A stretch of 51,630 nucleotides of DNA from Candidatus Nanohaloarchaea archaeon (GCA_041639695.1 JBEQBQ010000007.1:1-51630); one strand, 5' to 3'; numbered from the stretch's first letter, positions 44,925 through 49,985 are shown. The notes: generated by a model from the letters alone, not told the origin. A program made the numbers and translations.

Positions 44925-45875
44925 ATGGATAACAACAAATCCGATGCAGAAAAGGCACTTGAAAGACTCGAAATAGATTACACTGAGTTGGAAAGCCTGG
45001 ACGGCGGAAGCGACAGCCTTTTCTCCTTCAAATCCGGAGACAGATCTCTTATCCTGAAGATGAGAGGTTTCGAATATCTTCCCGACTCCTGGTTCAGAAA
45101 AGAACCCCTCTTCCTCGAGAAGGCATCAGAGGAGATAGATATGCCGGTTCCGGAAACCGTCGACATGAATCTCAGGGCTGAAACCCCTTACTTTGTCATG
45201 GAAAGGTTAGAAGGAGATTCTCTCTCAAACATAAAAAATGATCTTGGAGAGGAAGAACTCTTAGACCTATGTTTTCAGGCAGGGAAAACGCTGGGAGAAC
45301 TCCACTCCTCAACTGAGTACGACAGCTATGGCTGGATGAAAGAAACCGACGGAGATATTGAGAGAACCAGAATGTCATGGCAACAAGTATTCCAGGCTAT
45401 GTATGATGATCGTATCGAAGGCCTTGAAGGAACAGAGTTCGCTGAATACAGAAAAGAGGTCAAGAAATTTGTCAAAGATCGTATAGATTCGATGAATCCG
45501 GAAGGGCCTGTCCTAGGACATGATGATTATCGGCCAGGCAACATCATGGTTCGAGACAGCGAGATAGTCGGAGTAATAGACTGGGCGAGAGCATACGCCA
45601 CAGATCCATTATATGATATGGTGAAAGCGGAGATGAACTTCATGAACGAGCTCGAAACTATTGTCGATGAGGAAGAAGTTTCAAAGAGCTTCAGAAAAGG
45701 TTACAGAACTAGCCGTAAACCTAATTTAGATGAAAGAGAAGAAGTTTACCGTGCAAACACAGTTCTAGGCATGATGAAAGGTTTCTCCAATCACTGGGGC
45801 GATCTTATGGAAAAGGGTAAGAGACGAGAGAAAGCAGATTATCTCTCAGAGAAACTAGAAACCCTTATTACATAG
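44925..45875 (+). CDS. Aminoglycoside-phosphotransferase/choline-kinase family protein
   Basis: LILK, PVPE, YFVMERLEG, HDDYRPGNIMV, VIDW. Confidence 0.88.
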   Translation: MDNNKSDAEKALERLEIDYTELESLDGGSDSLFSFKSGDRSLILKMRGFEYLPDSWFRKEPLFLEKASEEIDMPVPETVDMNLRAETPYFVMERLEGDSLSNIKNDLGEEELLDLCFQAGKTLGELHSSTEYDSYGWMKETDGDIERTRMSWQQVFQAMYDDRIEGLEGTEFAEYRKEVKKFVKDRIDSMNPEGPVLGHDDYRPGNIMVRDSEIVGVIDWARAYATDPLYDMVKAEMNFMNELETIVDEEEVSKSFRKGYRTSRKPNLDEREEVYRANTVLGMMKGFSNHWGDLMEKGKRREKADYLSEKLETLIT

Positions 45876-45907: not shown

Positions 45908-46306
45908 TCAAGAGCCATCTCTAATGATGATAACTGCCAAGAAAATTATTGATATCAACCCCAGGAAAGGTCTGAGTGGCTCTATATAAGCCATTATAGT
46001 TGAGCTGGAGAGAAGAGCTAGTAAAACTACATTACATACTGGGCATCCGAATGCAAGAAAACCTGTAACCCCTCCTAGTGCAGCAAACCTTTTATCCAGC
46101 GTACTACATTTTTCCCGCCCGAAGTATACTGCTGCAAGCACAGAAGTTGTCAAAAGAAAGAAGTAATCGAGAAGAGTAATAGGAACCATTCTAACGTAGA
46201 GCGGGTTCGGGATTAATCCGGTAGTTAGACCTGTAGATATAAAAAAACCAAAACCAGCAATTAAACCCGTCAAAAGATTGAATTCATCGATGATTTCTAG
46301 ATCCAT
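45908..46306 (-). CDS. CxxC membrane protein (MerT-like C-half)
   Basis: About 4 TM; GLIPNPLY.RM, FGCPVCN, IEPLRPFLG. Confidence 0.75.
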   Translation of the reverse strand: MDLEIIDEFNLLTGLIAGFGFFISTGLTTGLIPNPLYVRMVPITLLDYFFLLTTSVLAAVYFGREKCSTLDKRFAALGGVTGFLAFGCPVCNVVLLALLSSSTIMAYIEPLRPFLGLISIIFLAVIIIRDGS

Positions 46307-46316
46307 AATCTCTAAA

Positions 46317-46847
46317 CTAGATCCTACAGGTTTCAGGGTTTCCAGTCCTAGTTATGAGAGCTACCAGCAGCAAAACTCCACCTAATCTTAGCAGGTTACC
46401 TCCGAACGGCAGCGAGGCAAGAACACCGCCGAAACCAAGGAGCGACATGACGCCTACCCCGCATGATGCGCATCCGCCCGTAATAAAACCGGGTAAAGCA
46501 CCCAGACTGCTGAGATCTACTCGGTTCATTTTCAATTGAATTACCGTGTTCGTCATCGTTACACCGACCAGTACTGAGAAGCCCGCGGTCAGAATCAATC
46601 CCATATATCCTGTGTTCATTATCAAGCCGGTTAGACGAGTTGTGAAGGCGATACCCCAGTACTGAATCCCGGAGGAAAGCATCTGAACCGAATAAGCCGG
46701 ATTAGCGGAAAAAATACTGAATAGAAAGGTGGCTAGAGCCACTGTTAAAGTGGCAAATGCCCTCTTTTTATCAGCCACCGCGCCTTTCAAACCCTGGAAA
46801 AGTTGCCTTCTCCAGTCAGCCGGATTTATCTTTATCGCGAAACCCAT
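46317..46847 (-). CDS. CxxC membrane protein
   Basis: About 4 TM; GGCASCG; C-terminal PETCRI. Confidence 0.75.
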   Translation of the reverse strand: MGFAIKINPADWRRQLFQGLKGAVADKKRAFATLTVALATFLFSIFSANPAYSVQMLSSGIQYWGIAFTTRLTGLIMNTGYMGLILTAGFSVLVGVTMTNTVIQLKMNRVDLSSLGALPGFITGGCASCGVGVMSLLGFGGVLASLPFGGNLLRLGGVLLLVALITRTGNPETCRI

Positions 46848-46851
46848 GTTA

Positions 46852-47673
46852 TCACTTCATCCACTGGTCTCTTCTCTCAAATAGCTCGTCATGGAACTCC
46901 CAGTAACTGTCCTGCTCATGTTCGTAGACACAGTTAGCTGCCTGGTGTGCCATCGGTCCGTTCGGATGTAGCTGTGGAACCGGATAGTCCTTCGAGATAA
47001 ACTCGACCTCTCCAGTATCTACATACTTGCTCTCTAGATTGTTTGCGATATTCATCTGGTCGATAGGCGTTCTTGATGAGGCATCAATCCCCTGCCATTC
47101 CGCGCAGAACGGACATCCGAACTCGTTGTATTCTACGACTTTTATCGAAGCATTCTCACTTCCTTTGCTTGGTTCTCCCTCTAACTCAATACCTTCAAGA
47201 CTGGTCAGATTTCCAGGTTTGTCGCTTTCTACTTTGTTGATGGCTTGTTCGAATCTTGAAAGTGGCTGTGCACCAGTAATTTTCACGAATCCTTTTTCCT
47301 TGTTTCCTACGAAGAATGTTGGTGTTCCGAAGCTCCCGATGTTTTGAACCGCTTTATTTCTGTCCTTGATAGCTTCCTGGTTGTCTGAGTCTTTGTAGCA
47401 CTGCATAACTTGATCTGTATCGAGTTCAAGATCATTAGAGATTTGCTTGAAAACCTCTTCAGGGCTCTGGCTATCAGCGTTGTCGCTTGAACTATCTGAT
47501 TTGTCTGGACCTATGTCCGTGTTTCCCTGTGGCGAGGTAGTTCCTTGTTGGGATGACACACTCATGGTTCCTGCCGCGAATCCTCCTAAACCGCCAAGAA
47601 CTAATCCAAGTACTAGAGAGGTTATGACTGCTTGGCGCGTGGTAAATTCCAGAGTTATCCCATCTTCACTCAT
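46852..47673 (-). CDS. Membrane-anchored, circularly permuted DsbA/BdbD-type thiol-disulfide oxidoreductase
   Basis: TM anchor; GTPTFF..GAQP (aa 116-137) precedes EYNEFGCPFC (aa 181-190) and AANC..YWEFHDELF. Confidence 0.85.
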   Translation of the reverse strand: MSEDGITLEFTTRQAVITSLVLGLVLGGLGGFAAGTMSVSSQQGTTSPQGNTDIGPDKSDSSSDNADSQSPEEVFKQISNDLELDTDQVMQCYKDSDNQEAIKDRNKAVQNIGSFGTPTFFVGNKEKGFVKITGAQPLSRFEQAINKVESDKPGNLTSLEGIELEGEPSKGSENASIKVVEYNEFGCPFCAEWQGIDASSRTPIDQMNIANNLESKYVDTGEVEFISKDYPVPQLHPNGPMAHQAANCVYEHEQDSYWEFHDELFERRDQWMK

Positions 47674-47739
47674 CTTGAACCACCTGATTCCCTACATATG
47701 GTTTTGAAATAGCTTCTCTGAACTCGATCAGAAGATGTG

Positions 47740-47754
47740 GTATCATATCGATAC
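47740..47754. promoter_or_regulatory. Candidate operator GTATC-N5-GATAC between dsbA-like and hxlR-like genes
   Basis: Inverted repeat in the divergent intergenic region; extra GATAC half-sites at 47795 and 47814. Confidence 0.4.
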
Positions 47755-47821
47755 TAGATATCCGAACGATATTAAAGGCCAAAGTTTAGTTGATGATACA
47801 TGGTTTCGGGGCCGATACAGC

Positions 47822-48196
47822 ATGTCTAAAAACCAGGGCAGAATTCCAGTGTGGTGCAAGACAGAGGAATGGTGCGCTCTTAAGTCCACTTCCAAAATCC
47901 TGGGGAGGAAATGGGTGCCAGCTATAGTATACCACATCCATGAAAACGAAGAGCTCAGATTCTCCCAGATACAAGAGAAGGTGGGCGGCATCACCAATAA
48001 AACTCTCAGCGACAACCTTGACAGGATGGAAGACCAAGGAATAATAGAGAGAGAAGTTAAGAACCAGAAACCTGTCAAGATCAGCTATGGACTTACCGAG
48101 TTCGGCGAAAGACTTGTGCCTTTAATCGAAGAGATGATCTCATGGGGTCAGGACAACCTCAAAGAAGGAGACAAAGAAGAAGCCTGGGTAAAATAA
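47822..48196 (+). CDS. HxlR/DUF24 (MarR-type) regulator with N-terminal cysteines
   Basis: VWC..EWC..ILGRKW, LRFSQIQ, ITNKTLS..L..ME..GII.R, P.KISY.LTEFG..L.P. Confidence 0.9.
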   Translation: MSKNQGRIPVWCKTEEWCALKSTSKILGRKWVPAIVYHIHENEELRFSQIQEKVGGITNKTLSDNLDRMEDQGIIEREVKNQKPVKISYGLTEFGERLVPLIEEMISWGQDNLKEGDKEEAWVK

Positions 48197-48258: not shown

Positions 48259-48483
48259 ATGAAGGAAAACGTTGGCGACACCGACAGCCTGGTGAGAATA
48301 GTGGTTGGTGCAGTAGCCGGCCTGCTATCGCTTGGAATACTTGCAGACGTACTGCCTTCAAGCATGAACCTGCCGGAAATCGCATCTCCCATCCTAGGAG
48401 TTATAGCGATAGTGCTACTGGCAACAGGATTCACCAGCAAATGCGGATTATACTCCGCACTAGGAATCAACACCCGGGATTGA
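48259..48483 (+). CDS. DUF2892 (YgaP-like) membrane protein
   Basis: MKENVG..D..VRI..G and TG..CGLYSALGINT. Confidence 0.85.
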   Translation: MKENVGDTDSLVRIVVGAVAGLLSLGILADVLPSSMNLPEIASPILGVIAIVLLATGFTSKCGLYSALGINTRD

Positions 48484-48513: not shown

Positions 48514-48696
48514 CTAAGACAGAAATCTGTCATAGAATTTTTCAGGCGGGCAGAAACAGGTAAAAGAGCTTTGCAGCAAATTGAGTCCTGCAAATAGCGT
48601 CACCAGGTAGACGTATTCGTGCACAAACCATCCTCCCAGAAAAGCTGCTGTTATTACAAGTCCGGCGAAACGCCTGACAAACTGCTTTTTCTTCAT
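48514..48696 (-). CDS. DUF2892 (YgaP-like) membrane protein
   Basis: VRRFAG..GLNLLQSSFTCFCP; GGAGGTG SD. Confidence 0.8.
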   Translation of the reverse strand: MKKKQFVRRFAGLVITAAFLGGWFVHEYVYLVTLFAGLNLLQSSFTCFCPPEKFYDRFLS

Positions 48697-49985
48697 TCTT
48701 TTTCACCTCCTGAATCTTTCTCTACAGATTTTGATCTGTACCTGTAAACCGACCCAATTAATACAGCAAGAGCTGCAAGTATACCTGCATAGATCAGTGA
48801 TGACTGGGTTCTACCTGTAAGTTCTATTTTTGTTTCCTCGGTAAACGTATAGACCGAGTTATCTCCTTCTTCGCTGTCTCCGTTAGCTCTCAGCTGGATC
48901 TTAAGCTGATGTGTCTTAAGGTTGGCCGATCTGTCGGCCGAGACTTTCAGTACTGCTTCCGCTGTATCTCCTGCTTCAATCTCACCGATATAATTCGATC
49001 GATCCTCAAGGCTGAACGGCTGAGTTCTCTCGGCGATCATTCTCGCGGTGACTGACTCTGCGTCCTGTTCTCCAGTGTTCTTCACTTTAACGTGAAGCTG
49101 TTTTGTAGCTCCGGCTTTCATCTCTGTCTCTGCGTCAACCAGTTCGAGGTCAGACTTTCCTTCAACCCTTAAACGAACTTCTAGGTTTTCCGAGTAGGTG
49201 TTGCCTGATTCATCCTCGTACGTTGTCTCTAGGTCTACCCTGTGAAGTCCCGCCTTGAGTTCTTCATCAAGGTCAAGTGTCAGTGTTCTATCTGCTGATT
49301 CACCTTCCATCAATTTGTTGATGTAGAACTTTTCGTCCTGGGAATACGCGGGAGCGATGTTTTCCGGTGTCTCCGGCCTGATCTCTACTTCTTCCAGAGG
49401 CTTGTTGCCTGTATTTGTGTAGGTTACATGGGCTTCTACGTAGTCATCACCCGGTCGAGGCGTGCCTGGGTCGGTTCTTACAACGTTGCTGGAGATATCT
49501 ACACCTTCGTTGTCGACAGGCATCGAAAACTCCCTGATAACCGTCACGTTTGAGTTCCCGTCGCCAGTCTGGATCTCCACAGGTTTGCCGTTCTCCAGGT
49601 ACTGGATATGGAGCTCAAAGTCGTACATGCCTGTAGGCGCACCTGAATCAACCTTCACCTGGAACCGCTGGTTCCAAACTCCTTCAGGGTACAGGAAACC
49701 GATTGATTCATCCCTGTCATCTTCTATCGTGACATACTCCCGTGTCAAACGGTTATCCGGTTTCAGGACTACTTTAAGCTGCTTGTCTTCATCCCAGGTC
49801 TTGCCGGGATAATTTGTCTCTTGCATATTGGCCGAGATGTTGACCCTGTCACCTGCTGAAATAAATGCAGGATCAAAACTCACTCCATCAAGCTTTGGAA
49901 CTGCCGAAGCCGTGGATACTGAAAATACGATGATCGAAAATGCGAATGCAAACTTGAGTGCCGTGTGTTGTGTTGTTCGTTTCAT
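48693..49985 (-). CDS. COG1361-type exported Ig-like protein with C-terminal TM (RND accessory)
   Basis: Signal peptide; repeated V.NTG..A..V and YIGEI.AG; C-terminal TM; adjacent to MMPL genes. Confidence 0.75.
   Translation of the reverse strand: MKRTTQHTALKFAFAFSIIVFSVSTASAVPKLDGVSFDPAFISAGDRVNISANMQETNYPGKTWDEDKQLKVVLKPDNRLTREYVTIEDDRDESIGFLYPEGVWNQRFQVKVDSGAPTGMYDFELHIQYLENGKPVEIQTGDGNSNVTVIREFSMPVDNEGVDISSNVVRTDPGTPRPGDDYVEAHVTYTNTGNKPLEEVEIRPETPENIAPAYSQDEKFYINKLMEGESADRTLTLDLDEELKAGLHRVDLETTYEDESGNTYSENLEVRLRVEGKSDLELVDAETEMKAGATKQLHVKVKNTGEQDAESVTARMIAERTQPFSLEDRSNYIGEIEAGDTAEAVLKVSADRSANLKTHQLKIQLRANGDSEEGDNSVYTFTEETKIELTGRTQSSLIYAGILAALAVLIGSVYRYRSKSVEKDSGGEKE

Follow-up and report, generated by a model that had tools for sequence, protein, structure and literature searches.

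A naturally permuted DsbA and its candidate membrane partners at a nanohaloarchaeal locus

Extracellular disulfide enzymes are recharged by DsbB or VKOR in quinone-containing, respiratory organisms, and their reductive arm is supplied through CcdA or DsbD. Which membrane protein, then, would serve a DsbA-family enzyme in an archaeon that does not respire? The question is raised by a locus at positions 45908 to 48196 of a 51,630-nucleotide stretch (the window) from the genome of a Candidatus Nanohaloarchaea archaeon (GCA_041639695.1 JBEQBQ010000007.1:1-51630), in which a first-pass annotation made from the sequence alone had seen a candidate thiol-redox system independent of DsbB and VKOR, composed of a permuted DsbA, two membrane proteins with a CxxC motif and an HxlR regulator with a sensor cysteine. 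Our analysis revealed that the two membrane proteins belong to an unnamed family whose link to DsbA-like genes, seen in gene order and in fusions, extends across nanohaloarchaea, haloarchaea and actinobacteria. We tentatively read the locus, with a confidence that falls a little short of even, as encoding a transmembrane cysteine relay dedicated to the DsbA of the same operon, to which it would probably supply reducing equivalents during thiol stress.

The core of the locus consists of three genes on the minus strand. The first (46852..47673) encodes a membrane-anchored, permuted thiol-disulfide oxidoreductase of the DsbA family (273 amino acids [aa], active site CPFC), recognized from its open reading frame (ORF) and its split Pfam matches. 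It is followed by ORFs for two four-helix membrane proteins of the unnamed family, M176 (46317..46847; 176 aa, with GGCASCG and C174) and its paralogue M132 (45908..46306; 132 aa, with GCPVCN and C67). The ORF coordinates agree with the tight operon described initially, as the gaps amount to 4 nucleotides (nt) between dsbA and M176 (46848-46851) and 10 nt between M176 and M132 (46307-46316). A divergent control region of 148 nt (47674..47821), marked by conserved elements with putative operator and TATA roles, separates this trio from a gene on the plus strand (47822..48196) that encodes a regulator of the HxlR/DUF24 family (Pfam HxlR), likely of 124 aa from the ATG at 47822, with Cys12 and Cys18 in the motif WCKTEEWC.

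The 273-aa protein is a member of the DsbA family by homology, and its topology has been changed by circular permutation. It scored well above the Pfam cut-offs for Thioredoxin_4 (PF13462; 69.5 bits versus 23.2) and DSBA (PF01323; 43.4 versus 25.6) and contains both the CPFC motif and the cis-Pro loop GTPTF. In canonical DsbAs the CxxC half precedes the cis-Pro half, and this order is reversed here: positions 122-190 of the DSBA profile, its C-terminal part, match residues 72-145, whereas positions 4-94 of the Thioredoxin_4 profile, the N-terminal part with CPFC, match residues 166-272. From the N terminus, the protein is made up of a hydrophobic anchor, a low-complexity linker, block B (residues ~68-150, the half that is C-terminal in canonical DsbAs and carries the GTPTF loop), a short joint and block A (residues ~156-273, the N-terminal half with CPFC). 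Compared with the canonical-order relative at locus L005, the two blocks are 75% and 63% identical and swapped in order, and the N-terminal anchor has not moved.

Structure prediction led to the same result. An AlphaFold2 (AF2) model, for which the halves of canonical relatives were entered as separate rows of the input alignment, had a predicted local distance difference test (pLDDT) score of 92-98 across most of residues 68-273, and the modelled domain was matched by Foldseek to BdbD (the top match), Wolbachia DsbA1, Corynebacterium DsbA and ScsC. The canonical DsbAs (BdbD, Wolbachia DsbA1) aligned with the model over ~100-110 columns, and the only solved chain that aligned with it across the full catalytic domain was the engineered permutant cpDsbA_Q100T99 (PDB 1UN2; 209 columns, template-modelling score of 0.63 by target length in the Foldseek search against PDB). 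The new termini of the natural protein, in the helical domain, thus lie at about the position of those in 1UN2, although the two proteins share 12% identity and differ in that the window protein is natural and membrane-anchored, whereas 1UN2 is a laboratory construct. A random-permutation study was reportedly carried out by Hennecke et al. in 1999. The split Pfam matches, the blocks swapped relative to L005 and the full-domain alignment with 1UN2 therefore confirm that the DsbA is permuted. In the literature searched we found no description of a natural permuted DsbA; the papers on circular permutation of DsbA that were inspected there dealt with engineered proteins or with methods.

The permuted order is not confined to the window. 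A scripted scan of the retrieved loci detected it at no fewer than 10 loci, which represent several genera and comprise the window, L004 and, from seven relatives, eight further regions; the canonical order was seen in 16 M176-linked relatives. We built a maximum-likelihood tree from the CPFC half (38 rows and 118 columns), from which 7 of 20 regions were omitted because none of their ORFs passed the filter; the branch that leads to one of the DsbB-linked rows (L102) is very long. One clade of this tree, with 100/100 support, takes in all 10 permuted and 5 canonical M176-linked DsbAs, and the permuted state requires at least two changes on well-supported branches. Two permuted subtypes can be told apart, one with CPWC and an N-terminal zinc-finger-like tail and the other with CPFC (L088, L091, L092 and L093 versus L086, L087, L089, L090 and L004). 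Canonical-order relatives stand between these subtypes on the tree, which suggests that permutation happened repeatedly or that the ancestor carried a tandem duplication; the history of the permutation was either one of repeated events or one of loss from a duplicated intermediate. We also observed that two other DsbA paralogues of the window genome (L083:1054-2046 and L082:1486-2280) carry a C2H2-like zinc-finger motif at the N terminus, before the membrane anchor and on the predicted cytoplasmic side (zf-C2H2_4, with scores of 25.4 and 21.7 bits that miss the cut-off of 27). CxxC motifs of this kind occur at the N terminus in many relatives.

The two membrane proteins proved harder to place. 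Neither M176 nor M132 matched any Pfam or NCBIfam family significantly. The nearest named homologues of M176 are a "Nanohaloarchaea archaeon" protein (95% identity) and LC1Nh_0813 of Candidatus Nanohalobium constans (74%); 122 homologues were retrieved, and a Pfam domain was present in none of the 120 listed. The ESM Atlas homologues of M132 and M176 formed only "hypothetical protein" clusters with no common Pfam family, and the comparison of both profiles with the sequences of PDB chains returned nothing meaningful. The two proteins do match each other, both in BLASTP (34% identity across a 32-residue stretch that surrounds the CxxC, E = 2e-4) and in a profile-profile comparison with hhalign (116 columns, probability of 95.4%, E = 1.8e-8). 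Judged from their sequences, M176 and M132 are paralogues over their whole body. The homology that had been noticed between them is consequently real, but its restriction to the C-terminal half does not hold, as 116 columns align.

Each membrane protein contains exactly three cysteines, namely, C126, C129 and C174 in M176 and C88, C91 and C67 in M132, and thus has the one extra cysteine besides its CxxC that had been pointed out earlier. Invariant features of M176 are Q55, PG..GCASCG in the third helix and the C-terminal G.P..C174, with C174 conserved in 20 of 20 aligned sequences. The motifs of M132 are T.LIPNP...R in the first outer loop, GCPVCN after helix 3, EP.RP and C67; in its family the CxxC is invariant, and T29, R39, L57, G78, N92, P110 and P113 are invariant or nearly so. 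In the AF2 model of M132 (pLDDT of 85, predicted template-modelling score of 0.73; helices 11-29, 45-63, 69-86, 93-98 and 101-131), CPVC occupies the break after helix 3. At least one further cysteine, in the loop between transmembrane helices 2 and 3 or in the C-terminal tail, was found in 105 of 107 M132-family members (38 with the loop cysteine only, 29 with one and 26 with two tail cysteines, 12 with other arrangements, and 2 with none). This cysteine shifts in sequence yet keeps to one face, which argues that a cysteine is needed there.

Loop 2 and the N terminus of M132 are rich in positive residues, and in the fused forms described below either an extra helix separates the M132 domain from an exported DsbA or the cytoplasmic domains are at the N terminus. 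Both features point to a topology with the N and C termini inside. The CxxC and the conserved loop 1 are accordingly predicted to face outward, and C67 or the C-terminal cysteine (C174 in M176) to face the cytoplasm.

A relationship to a known family was detected for the C-terminal part of M132. The M132-family profile aligned with MerT of Tn21/R100 over 68 columns (hhalign probability of 94.4%, E = 9.1e-8), with M132 residues 70-132 opposite MerT residues 6-77. In this alignment, GCPxCN is paired with the CC of MerT, EP.RP with EPYRP, and the tail cysteine column with Cys76 of MerT, the last aligned residue. The direct hhalign probability between the M176 profile and MerT was 1%, and M176 is linked to MerT through M132 only; MerC gave no alignment with the M132 family. 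The curated MerT cut-offs were not reached by the window proteins (no match to Pfam PF02411; NCBIfam MerTP at E = 0.26 and 10.9 bits versus 180), and two other members of the M132 family gave sub-threshold matches to Pfam MerT (21.5 and 22.6 bits versus 32.9). The MerT likeness that the first-pass annotation had proposed for the C-terminal halves is therefore genuine but distant for M132, where it is confined to the C-terminal helix pair, and extends to M176 by way of M132. Through this helix pair, the M132/M176 family appears to be a distant relative of MerT.

The locus has in common with MerT/MerP a helix with paired cysteines, an EP.RP turn, a second helix followed by a cytoplasmic cysteine, and an outside CxxC protein encoded next to the membrane protein. 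It differs in having CxxC instead of a vicinal CC, four helices instead of three, and two additional helices at the N terminus whose outer loop has a conserved motif of its own, as well as a partner with the DsbA fold, whereas MerP has the HMA fold. The likeness to MerT brings up an alternative in which the module would handle thiophilic metals in the manner of MerP-MerT: CPFC would bind Cu(I) or Hg(II) outside and hand it to the membrane CxxC and on to the cytoplasmic cysteine, for uptake or sequestration. We consider this role unlikely, although it is the main rival of the relay. It gains from the fact that the MerT homology spans the cysteine-bearing helices and the cytoplasmic cysteine, from the sub-threshold MerT matches of the two family members, and from the precedent of ScsC, a DsbA-like protein that is reported to bind Cu(I) with subpicomolar affinity (PMC8900818) and that is termed Cu-binding, like ScsB, in a review (PMC10907172). 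However, the window genome, which is 89% complete, contains no MerA above the cut-off (best match of 329.5 bits versus 454.45), no SCO1, no haem-copper or bd oxidase and no HMA domain, although HMA matches were obtained in 13 of 14 control genomes. An HMA domain is also missing from all 14 of the longer fused forms of M132, and the partner of the membrane proteins has a thioredoxin fold and not an HMA fold. Furthermore, the DsbA-M176 pair is near-universal in nanohaloarchaeal genomes of 1 Mb, for which a housekeeping function fits better than resistance.

This last point emerged from a survey of 41 nanohaloarchaeal genomes, including that of the window. M176 was present in 33 of them, often in 2-3 copies, and Thioredoxin_4 in 37. 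True M132 was present in only 4, and three further weak matches fell on M176 genes. We analyzed linkage with 43 of the 44 M176 matches (the second piece of one place was dropped) and 81 of the 88 Thioredoxin_4 matches (the seven weakest were dropped). Of these M176 matches, 35 were located on the same strand as a Thioredoxin_4 domain and at most 200 nt downstream of it, nine of them with a DsbA of the permuted type. The window genome itself harbors a second DsbA-M176 pair on contig C14, with an overlap of 4 nt (L083:1054-2046 and L083:2043-2549, both on the plus strand). Its DsbA-like protein (330 aa, CPFC) has the canonical order, its M176 paralogue (168 aa) carries GCAGCG and a tail cysteine, and no M132 follows.

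The reverse analysis started from the best 80 M132-family loci, whose neighbors were inspected within 4 kb. M176 was found at 43 of these loci, a DsbA-like gene at 44 and both at 41; at 30 loci M176 was directly upstream of M132 on the same strand. Both genes accompanied M132 at all four nanohaloarchaeal loci, and the 58 haloarchaeal loci had M176 in 39 and DsbA in 37 cases. Neither gene was detected at any of the 4 other archaeal loci, and the 14 bacterial loci included none with M176 and 3 with DsbA. Among 151 sampled haloarchaeal genomes, whose relatedness was not controlled, 25 contained M176 and M132, 2 contained M176 alone, 15 contained M132 alone and 109 contained neither (thresholds of E ≤ 1e-55 for M176 and E ≤ 1e-10 for M132). 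The two genes were at most 150 nt apart in 18 of the 25 genomes having both. Haloarchaeal M176 thus comes with M132 in 25 of 27 genomes, whereas nanohaloarchaeal M176 occurs without M132 in 29 of 33. For the heterodimer put forward by the first-pass annotation, the haloarchaeal pattern counts in favor and the nanohaloarchaeal one against.

The M132 family as a whole is large, with 1062 representative clusters at E ≤ 0.001 and 670 at E ≤ 1e-10. A word-indexed search gave 56 homologues, including haloarchaea and an Arthrobacter, and at least 582 genome loci were confirmed in haloarchaea, nanohaloarchaea, Archaeoglobi, Methanosarcinales, Chloroflexia and Streptomyces. Among 8000 scored candidates there were 14 longer relatives at E ≤ 0.001, comprising nine CcdA-M132 fusions (mostly from Micromonospora), three in which M132 is joined through a transmembrane helix to DsbA, and two ArsR-rhodanese-M132 fusions. 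These proteins come from GC-rich records, one of them with a stretch that looks frame-shifted. The expectation that the membrane genes co-occur with DsbA was thus borne out by the nanohaloarchaeal linkage, by the M132 loci with both partners and by the M132-DsbA fusions. Taken together, these data show that the pairing of the M132/M176 family with DsbA-like proteins is dedicated, ancient and mobile. No description of this family as a partner of DsbA was found in the literature searched.

The fusions to CcdA call for a comparison with CcdA/DsbD and their clients ResA, TlpA or DsbC, with which the window proteins share the principle of a membrane protein with intramembrane cysteines that serves an outward thioredoxin-fold protein. 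They differ from CcdA in having four helices and not six and a third, cytoplasmic cysteine. A CcdA analogue by homology was rejected, since there was no match to Pfam DsbD (PF02683) and the hhalign probability against the haloarchaeal CcdA-like cluster was 0.85%; of the eight members of that cluster, one reaches Pfam DsbD_TM. The CcdA-like protein of the haloarchaeal islands has the motif SPCxxPLLP and remains below the Pfam cut-off in the other seven members.

These islands (L008-L014, L024, L038 and others) hold, besides M132, SCO1, a TlpA-like Redoxin, the CcdA-like protein, DUF7521 with HTH_20/PadR and an 87-aa LCC membrane protein, and many are on plasmids or beside transposases. They are reminiscent of scsABCD in combining DsbA-like, TlpA-like Redoxin, CcdA-like and small CxxC membrane proteins; in scsABCD itself, ScsA is described as a small CX2C protein of unknown function that is possibly membrane-buried (PMC10907172). 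Counted over crude ORF clusters, the haloarchaeal neighbors of M132 were SCO1 (23 loci), CcdA-like (16), TlpA-like Redoxin (9), rhodanese-metallo-beta-lactamase (8), the small LCC membrane protein (7), DUF2270 (7), TauE (5), pyridine-nucleotide-disulfide reductase (5) and DUF302 (4), and one Archaeoglobi M132 locus includes a P-type ATPase. SCO1, the Redoxin, the CcdA-like and LCC proteins and the ATPase would suit the handling of thiophilic metals. The rhodanese-metallo-beta-lactamase, TauE, DUF2270, DUF302 and pyridine-nucleotide-disulfide reductase would instead suit a traffic in sulfane sulfur or persulfide, in which the membrane cysteines would carry sulfur between a cytoplasmic sulfurtransferase and the outer DsbA-like protein. 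This idea draws further on the two ArsR-rhodanese-M132 fusions, on two genes for YgaP-like-TM proteins beside hxlR, and on a report that polysulfides can oxidize DsbA in vitro and compensate for the loss of dsbB in Escherichia coli (PMC11921322). We nonetheless judge it very improbable, given that the haloarchaeal neighbors in question do not occur in nanohaloarchaeal loci, that the fusions are of the GC-rich and partly frame-shifted-looking kind mentioned above, and that the operon in the window has no rhodanese.

Is the system independent of DsbB, as proposed at the outset? For the genome as a whole this does not hold, because a DsbB-family ORF with CMLC and a second cysteine pair is present on another contig (33 bits versus a cut-off of 22.1), and a canonical partner was among the findings that the first-pass annotation had named as refuting its proposal. 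What stands of the proposal is that VKOR and CcdA were not found in the window genome at its 89% completeness and that, in relatives, DsbB lies beside a different clade of DsbA. The genome is unusually poor in genes for metal handling and respiration, with no HMA, SCO1, CcdA, VKOR or terminal oxidases detected; the lack of haem-copper and bd oxidases fits the premise that the organism is non-respiring.

Across the 41 nanohaloarchaeal genomes, DsbB was found in 20, VKOR in 11 and CcdA in 17 at E ≤ 0.001, 9 of which are above the cut-off. For ten of 22 DsbB matches a Thioredoxin_4 gene was found at a distance of at most 1.5 kb, and M176 was linked to none of the DsbAs concerned. In the tree, a clade with 99/99 support unites 9 of the 10 DsbB-linked DsbAs and contains no M176-linked DsbA. 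As the DsbB-linked and the M176-linked DsbAs belong to separate clades, two DsbA systems coexist, and a system separate from DsbB is a fair description of the one in the window. In ten of the 41 genomes M176 was detected and both DsbB and VKOR were not; eight of these also lack a CcdA match, among them three (G010, G020 and G024) that have DsbA and a completeness of 90% or more. We rejected M176 as a simple substitute for DsbB, VKOR or CcdA, since each of the three is found together with it in some of the genomes.

These counts bear on the reading that the first-pass annotation had preferred, in which M176 and M132 would act as a quinone-independent re-oxidase that passes electrons from reduced DsbA to a non-respiratory acceptor, standing in for DsbB or VKOR. 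The eight genomes with M176 and no detected DsbB, VKOR or CcdA, including the three that are largely complete, are in its favor, and so is the absence of a terminal oxidase from the window genome, which leaves a quinone-linked route without an obvious sink. On the other hand, DsbB is present in the window genome and in 19 others of the 41; where it adjoins a DsbA gene, that DsbA is of the other clade, and no acceptor can be named. With DsbB-DsbA of E. coli and BdbC-BdbD of Bacillus, the locus shares a small four-helix CxxC membrane protein beside a DsbA-family gene. DsbB and VKOR have two outward cysteine pairs, whereas both M176 and M132 have a single CxxC on the predicted outer side and a conserved cysteine that faces the cytoplasm; neither protein matched the DsbB family (PF02600). 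Fold searches with the M132 model gave no clear solved match either (best Foldseek E of 0.7 against PDB; best VIA-align Z of 7.8, to generic helical bundles), and DsbB, VKOR, CcdA and MerF were not among the matches listed. A re-oxidase role is therefore improbable in our view.

The regulator offers a further indication of function. Its winged-helix domain was recognized with confidence (Pfam HxlR, E = 4.5e-24, 84.6 bits versus a cut-off of 20.8), and its solved relatives are YybR, HxlR, YodB and QsrR, the best being Bacillus subtilis YybR (4a5m, E = 1.2e-16), which we take to be HypR, with Cys14 as its sensing residue. Cys18 of the window regulator aligns with this Cys14, which supports the assignment of a sensor-type N-terminal cysteine of the HypR class. 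The position of the second cysteine of HypR (in RRICPS) is not a cysteine in the window regulator, which has instead an extra cysteine, Cys12, six residues upstream of Cys18. The WC..WC pattern noted earlier corresponds to WCKTEEWC, and both of its cysteines are invariant in 4 of 4 HxlR orthologues.

The longest hxlR ORF runs from 47735 to 48196. The true start is likely the ATG at 47822, since the L005 orthologue is a 124-aa ORF whose upstream extension, read by eye, has no usual start codon; a stop codon precedes that extension. In the window the corresponding segment, 47735-47821, is conserved among four loci, with several differences at third codon positions, and is either a regulatory region or, in some lineages, a coding extension. 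The inverted repeat GTATC-N5-GATAC at 47740-47754 lies within the longest ORF and upstream of the likely start, and reads GT(A/T)TC-N5-GA(A/T)A(C/T) across the four loci. It is followed by an A/T-rich box (TTTAATAT, minus strand, 47769-47776) and by a second inverted repeat, GATAC-ATG-GTTTC, at 47795-47807 (GAAAC-CAT-GT(A/T)TC across loci), and each of the three elements keeps its position in all 4 aligned loci. The palindrome reported between the divergent genes is thus present and conserved in position, but taken alone it does not exceed chance: when up to one mismatch is allowed, the window has 2 matches where 1.12 would be expected, and at least as many appear in 31 of 100 shuffles. From the conserved arrangement we infer two putative operators flanking a shared A/T (TATA-like) box.

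Downstream of hxlR by 63 nt begins a gene for a small YgaP-like-TM (DUF2892) membrane protein of 74 aa (48259..48483, plus strand; PF11127, E = 1.6e-17). Its homologues adjoin hxlR in L003 and L005 as well, and it is possibly co-transcribed with hxlR; its position suggests that it may be part of the thiol system. A second small YgaP-like-TM (DUF2892) membrane gene, also recognized by Pfam, lies on the minus strand (48514-48696), and both genes encode a conserved cysteine. The YgaP-like TM domain is the anchor of the rhodanese YgaP, which is a hint of a sulfur link for the genes beside hxlR. The locus is flanked by a gene for an APH-family phosphotransferase (44925-45875, plus strand; Pfam E = 1.3e-26) and by one for a CARDB/NPCBM_assoc surface protein with a C-terminal anchor (48693-49985, minus strand), homologues of which flank the locus in the relatives L003 and L005.

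We thus return to the cysteine relay as the preferred reading. The operon would be a stress-regulated thiol module at the cell surface, with the membrane-anchored, outward-facing permuted DsbA and its CPFC active site as the client and with M176 and M132, encoded directly after it, as its own membrane partner, which would be in physical contact with it. The CxxC at the outer face and the cytoplasmic cysteine would together join CPFC to the cytoplasmic thiol pool. Most likely, this relay would feed reducing equivalents to DsbA, which would thereby reduce or isomerize disulfides or protect thiols at the surface, in parallel to the classical DsbB-DsbA pair of the same lineage and kept apart from it. 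The HxlR/HypR-type regulator may sense thiol-oxidizing or electrophilic stress through its N-terminal cysteine and then release the two inverted repeats. We favor the reducing direction because an oxidative DsbB-DsbA pair already exists in the lineage, because the cytoplasm-facing cysteine points at the cytoplasmic thiol pool, because the family is fused both to CcdA and to DsbA, and because the regulator is of the disulfide/electrophile-stress type.

Several observations weigh against this reading. MerT is a metal transporter, and homology to it by itself favors a metal role. According to the helix order of the M132 model, the CxxC and the extra cysteine are at opposite ends of helix 3, and would depend on movement or on a further partner for an exchange between them. 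The scarcity of true M132 in nanohaloarchaea implies that a heterodimer is not required, and at 37 of the 80 M132 loci M176 was absent from the 4 kb inspected. Three genomes from a single genus (G034, G036 and G038, 69-73% complete) have VKOR at a distance of 0.6-3.4 kb from their only detected DsbA-like gene, which is itself followed by M176; if VKOR oxidizes that DsbA, a reducing relay acting on the same enzyme would be futile. Finally, the dipeptides within the CxxC do not separate DsbB-linked from M176-linked DsbAs.

On a wider view, M176 and M132 may represent a further class of DsbA membrane partner besides DsbB, VKOR and CcdA/DsbD, one that would be quinone-free, with a MerT-like hairpin in which an outward CxxC is coupled to a cytoplasmic cysteine, that would be the sole partner in many non-respiring nanohaloarchaea, and whose DsbA client was naturally permuted, possibly more than once. 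We put forward this broader claim as a possibility that we would not yet call probable. The window DsbA is a natural counterpart to a laboratory circular permutant, and its close canonical and permuted relatives, 63-75% identical, form a pair of a kind seldom met in nature, on which folding and evolution could be studied. In some genomes of 1 Mb, the M176/M132 family is the only candidate partner of DsbA that was detected. If the cysteine relay is true, a mercury-transporter scaffold would have been turned into redox plumbing, and there would be a testable answer to how DsbA is served in archaea that do not respire.

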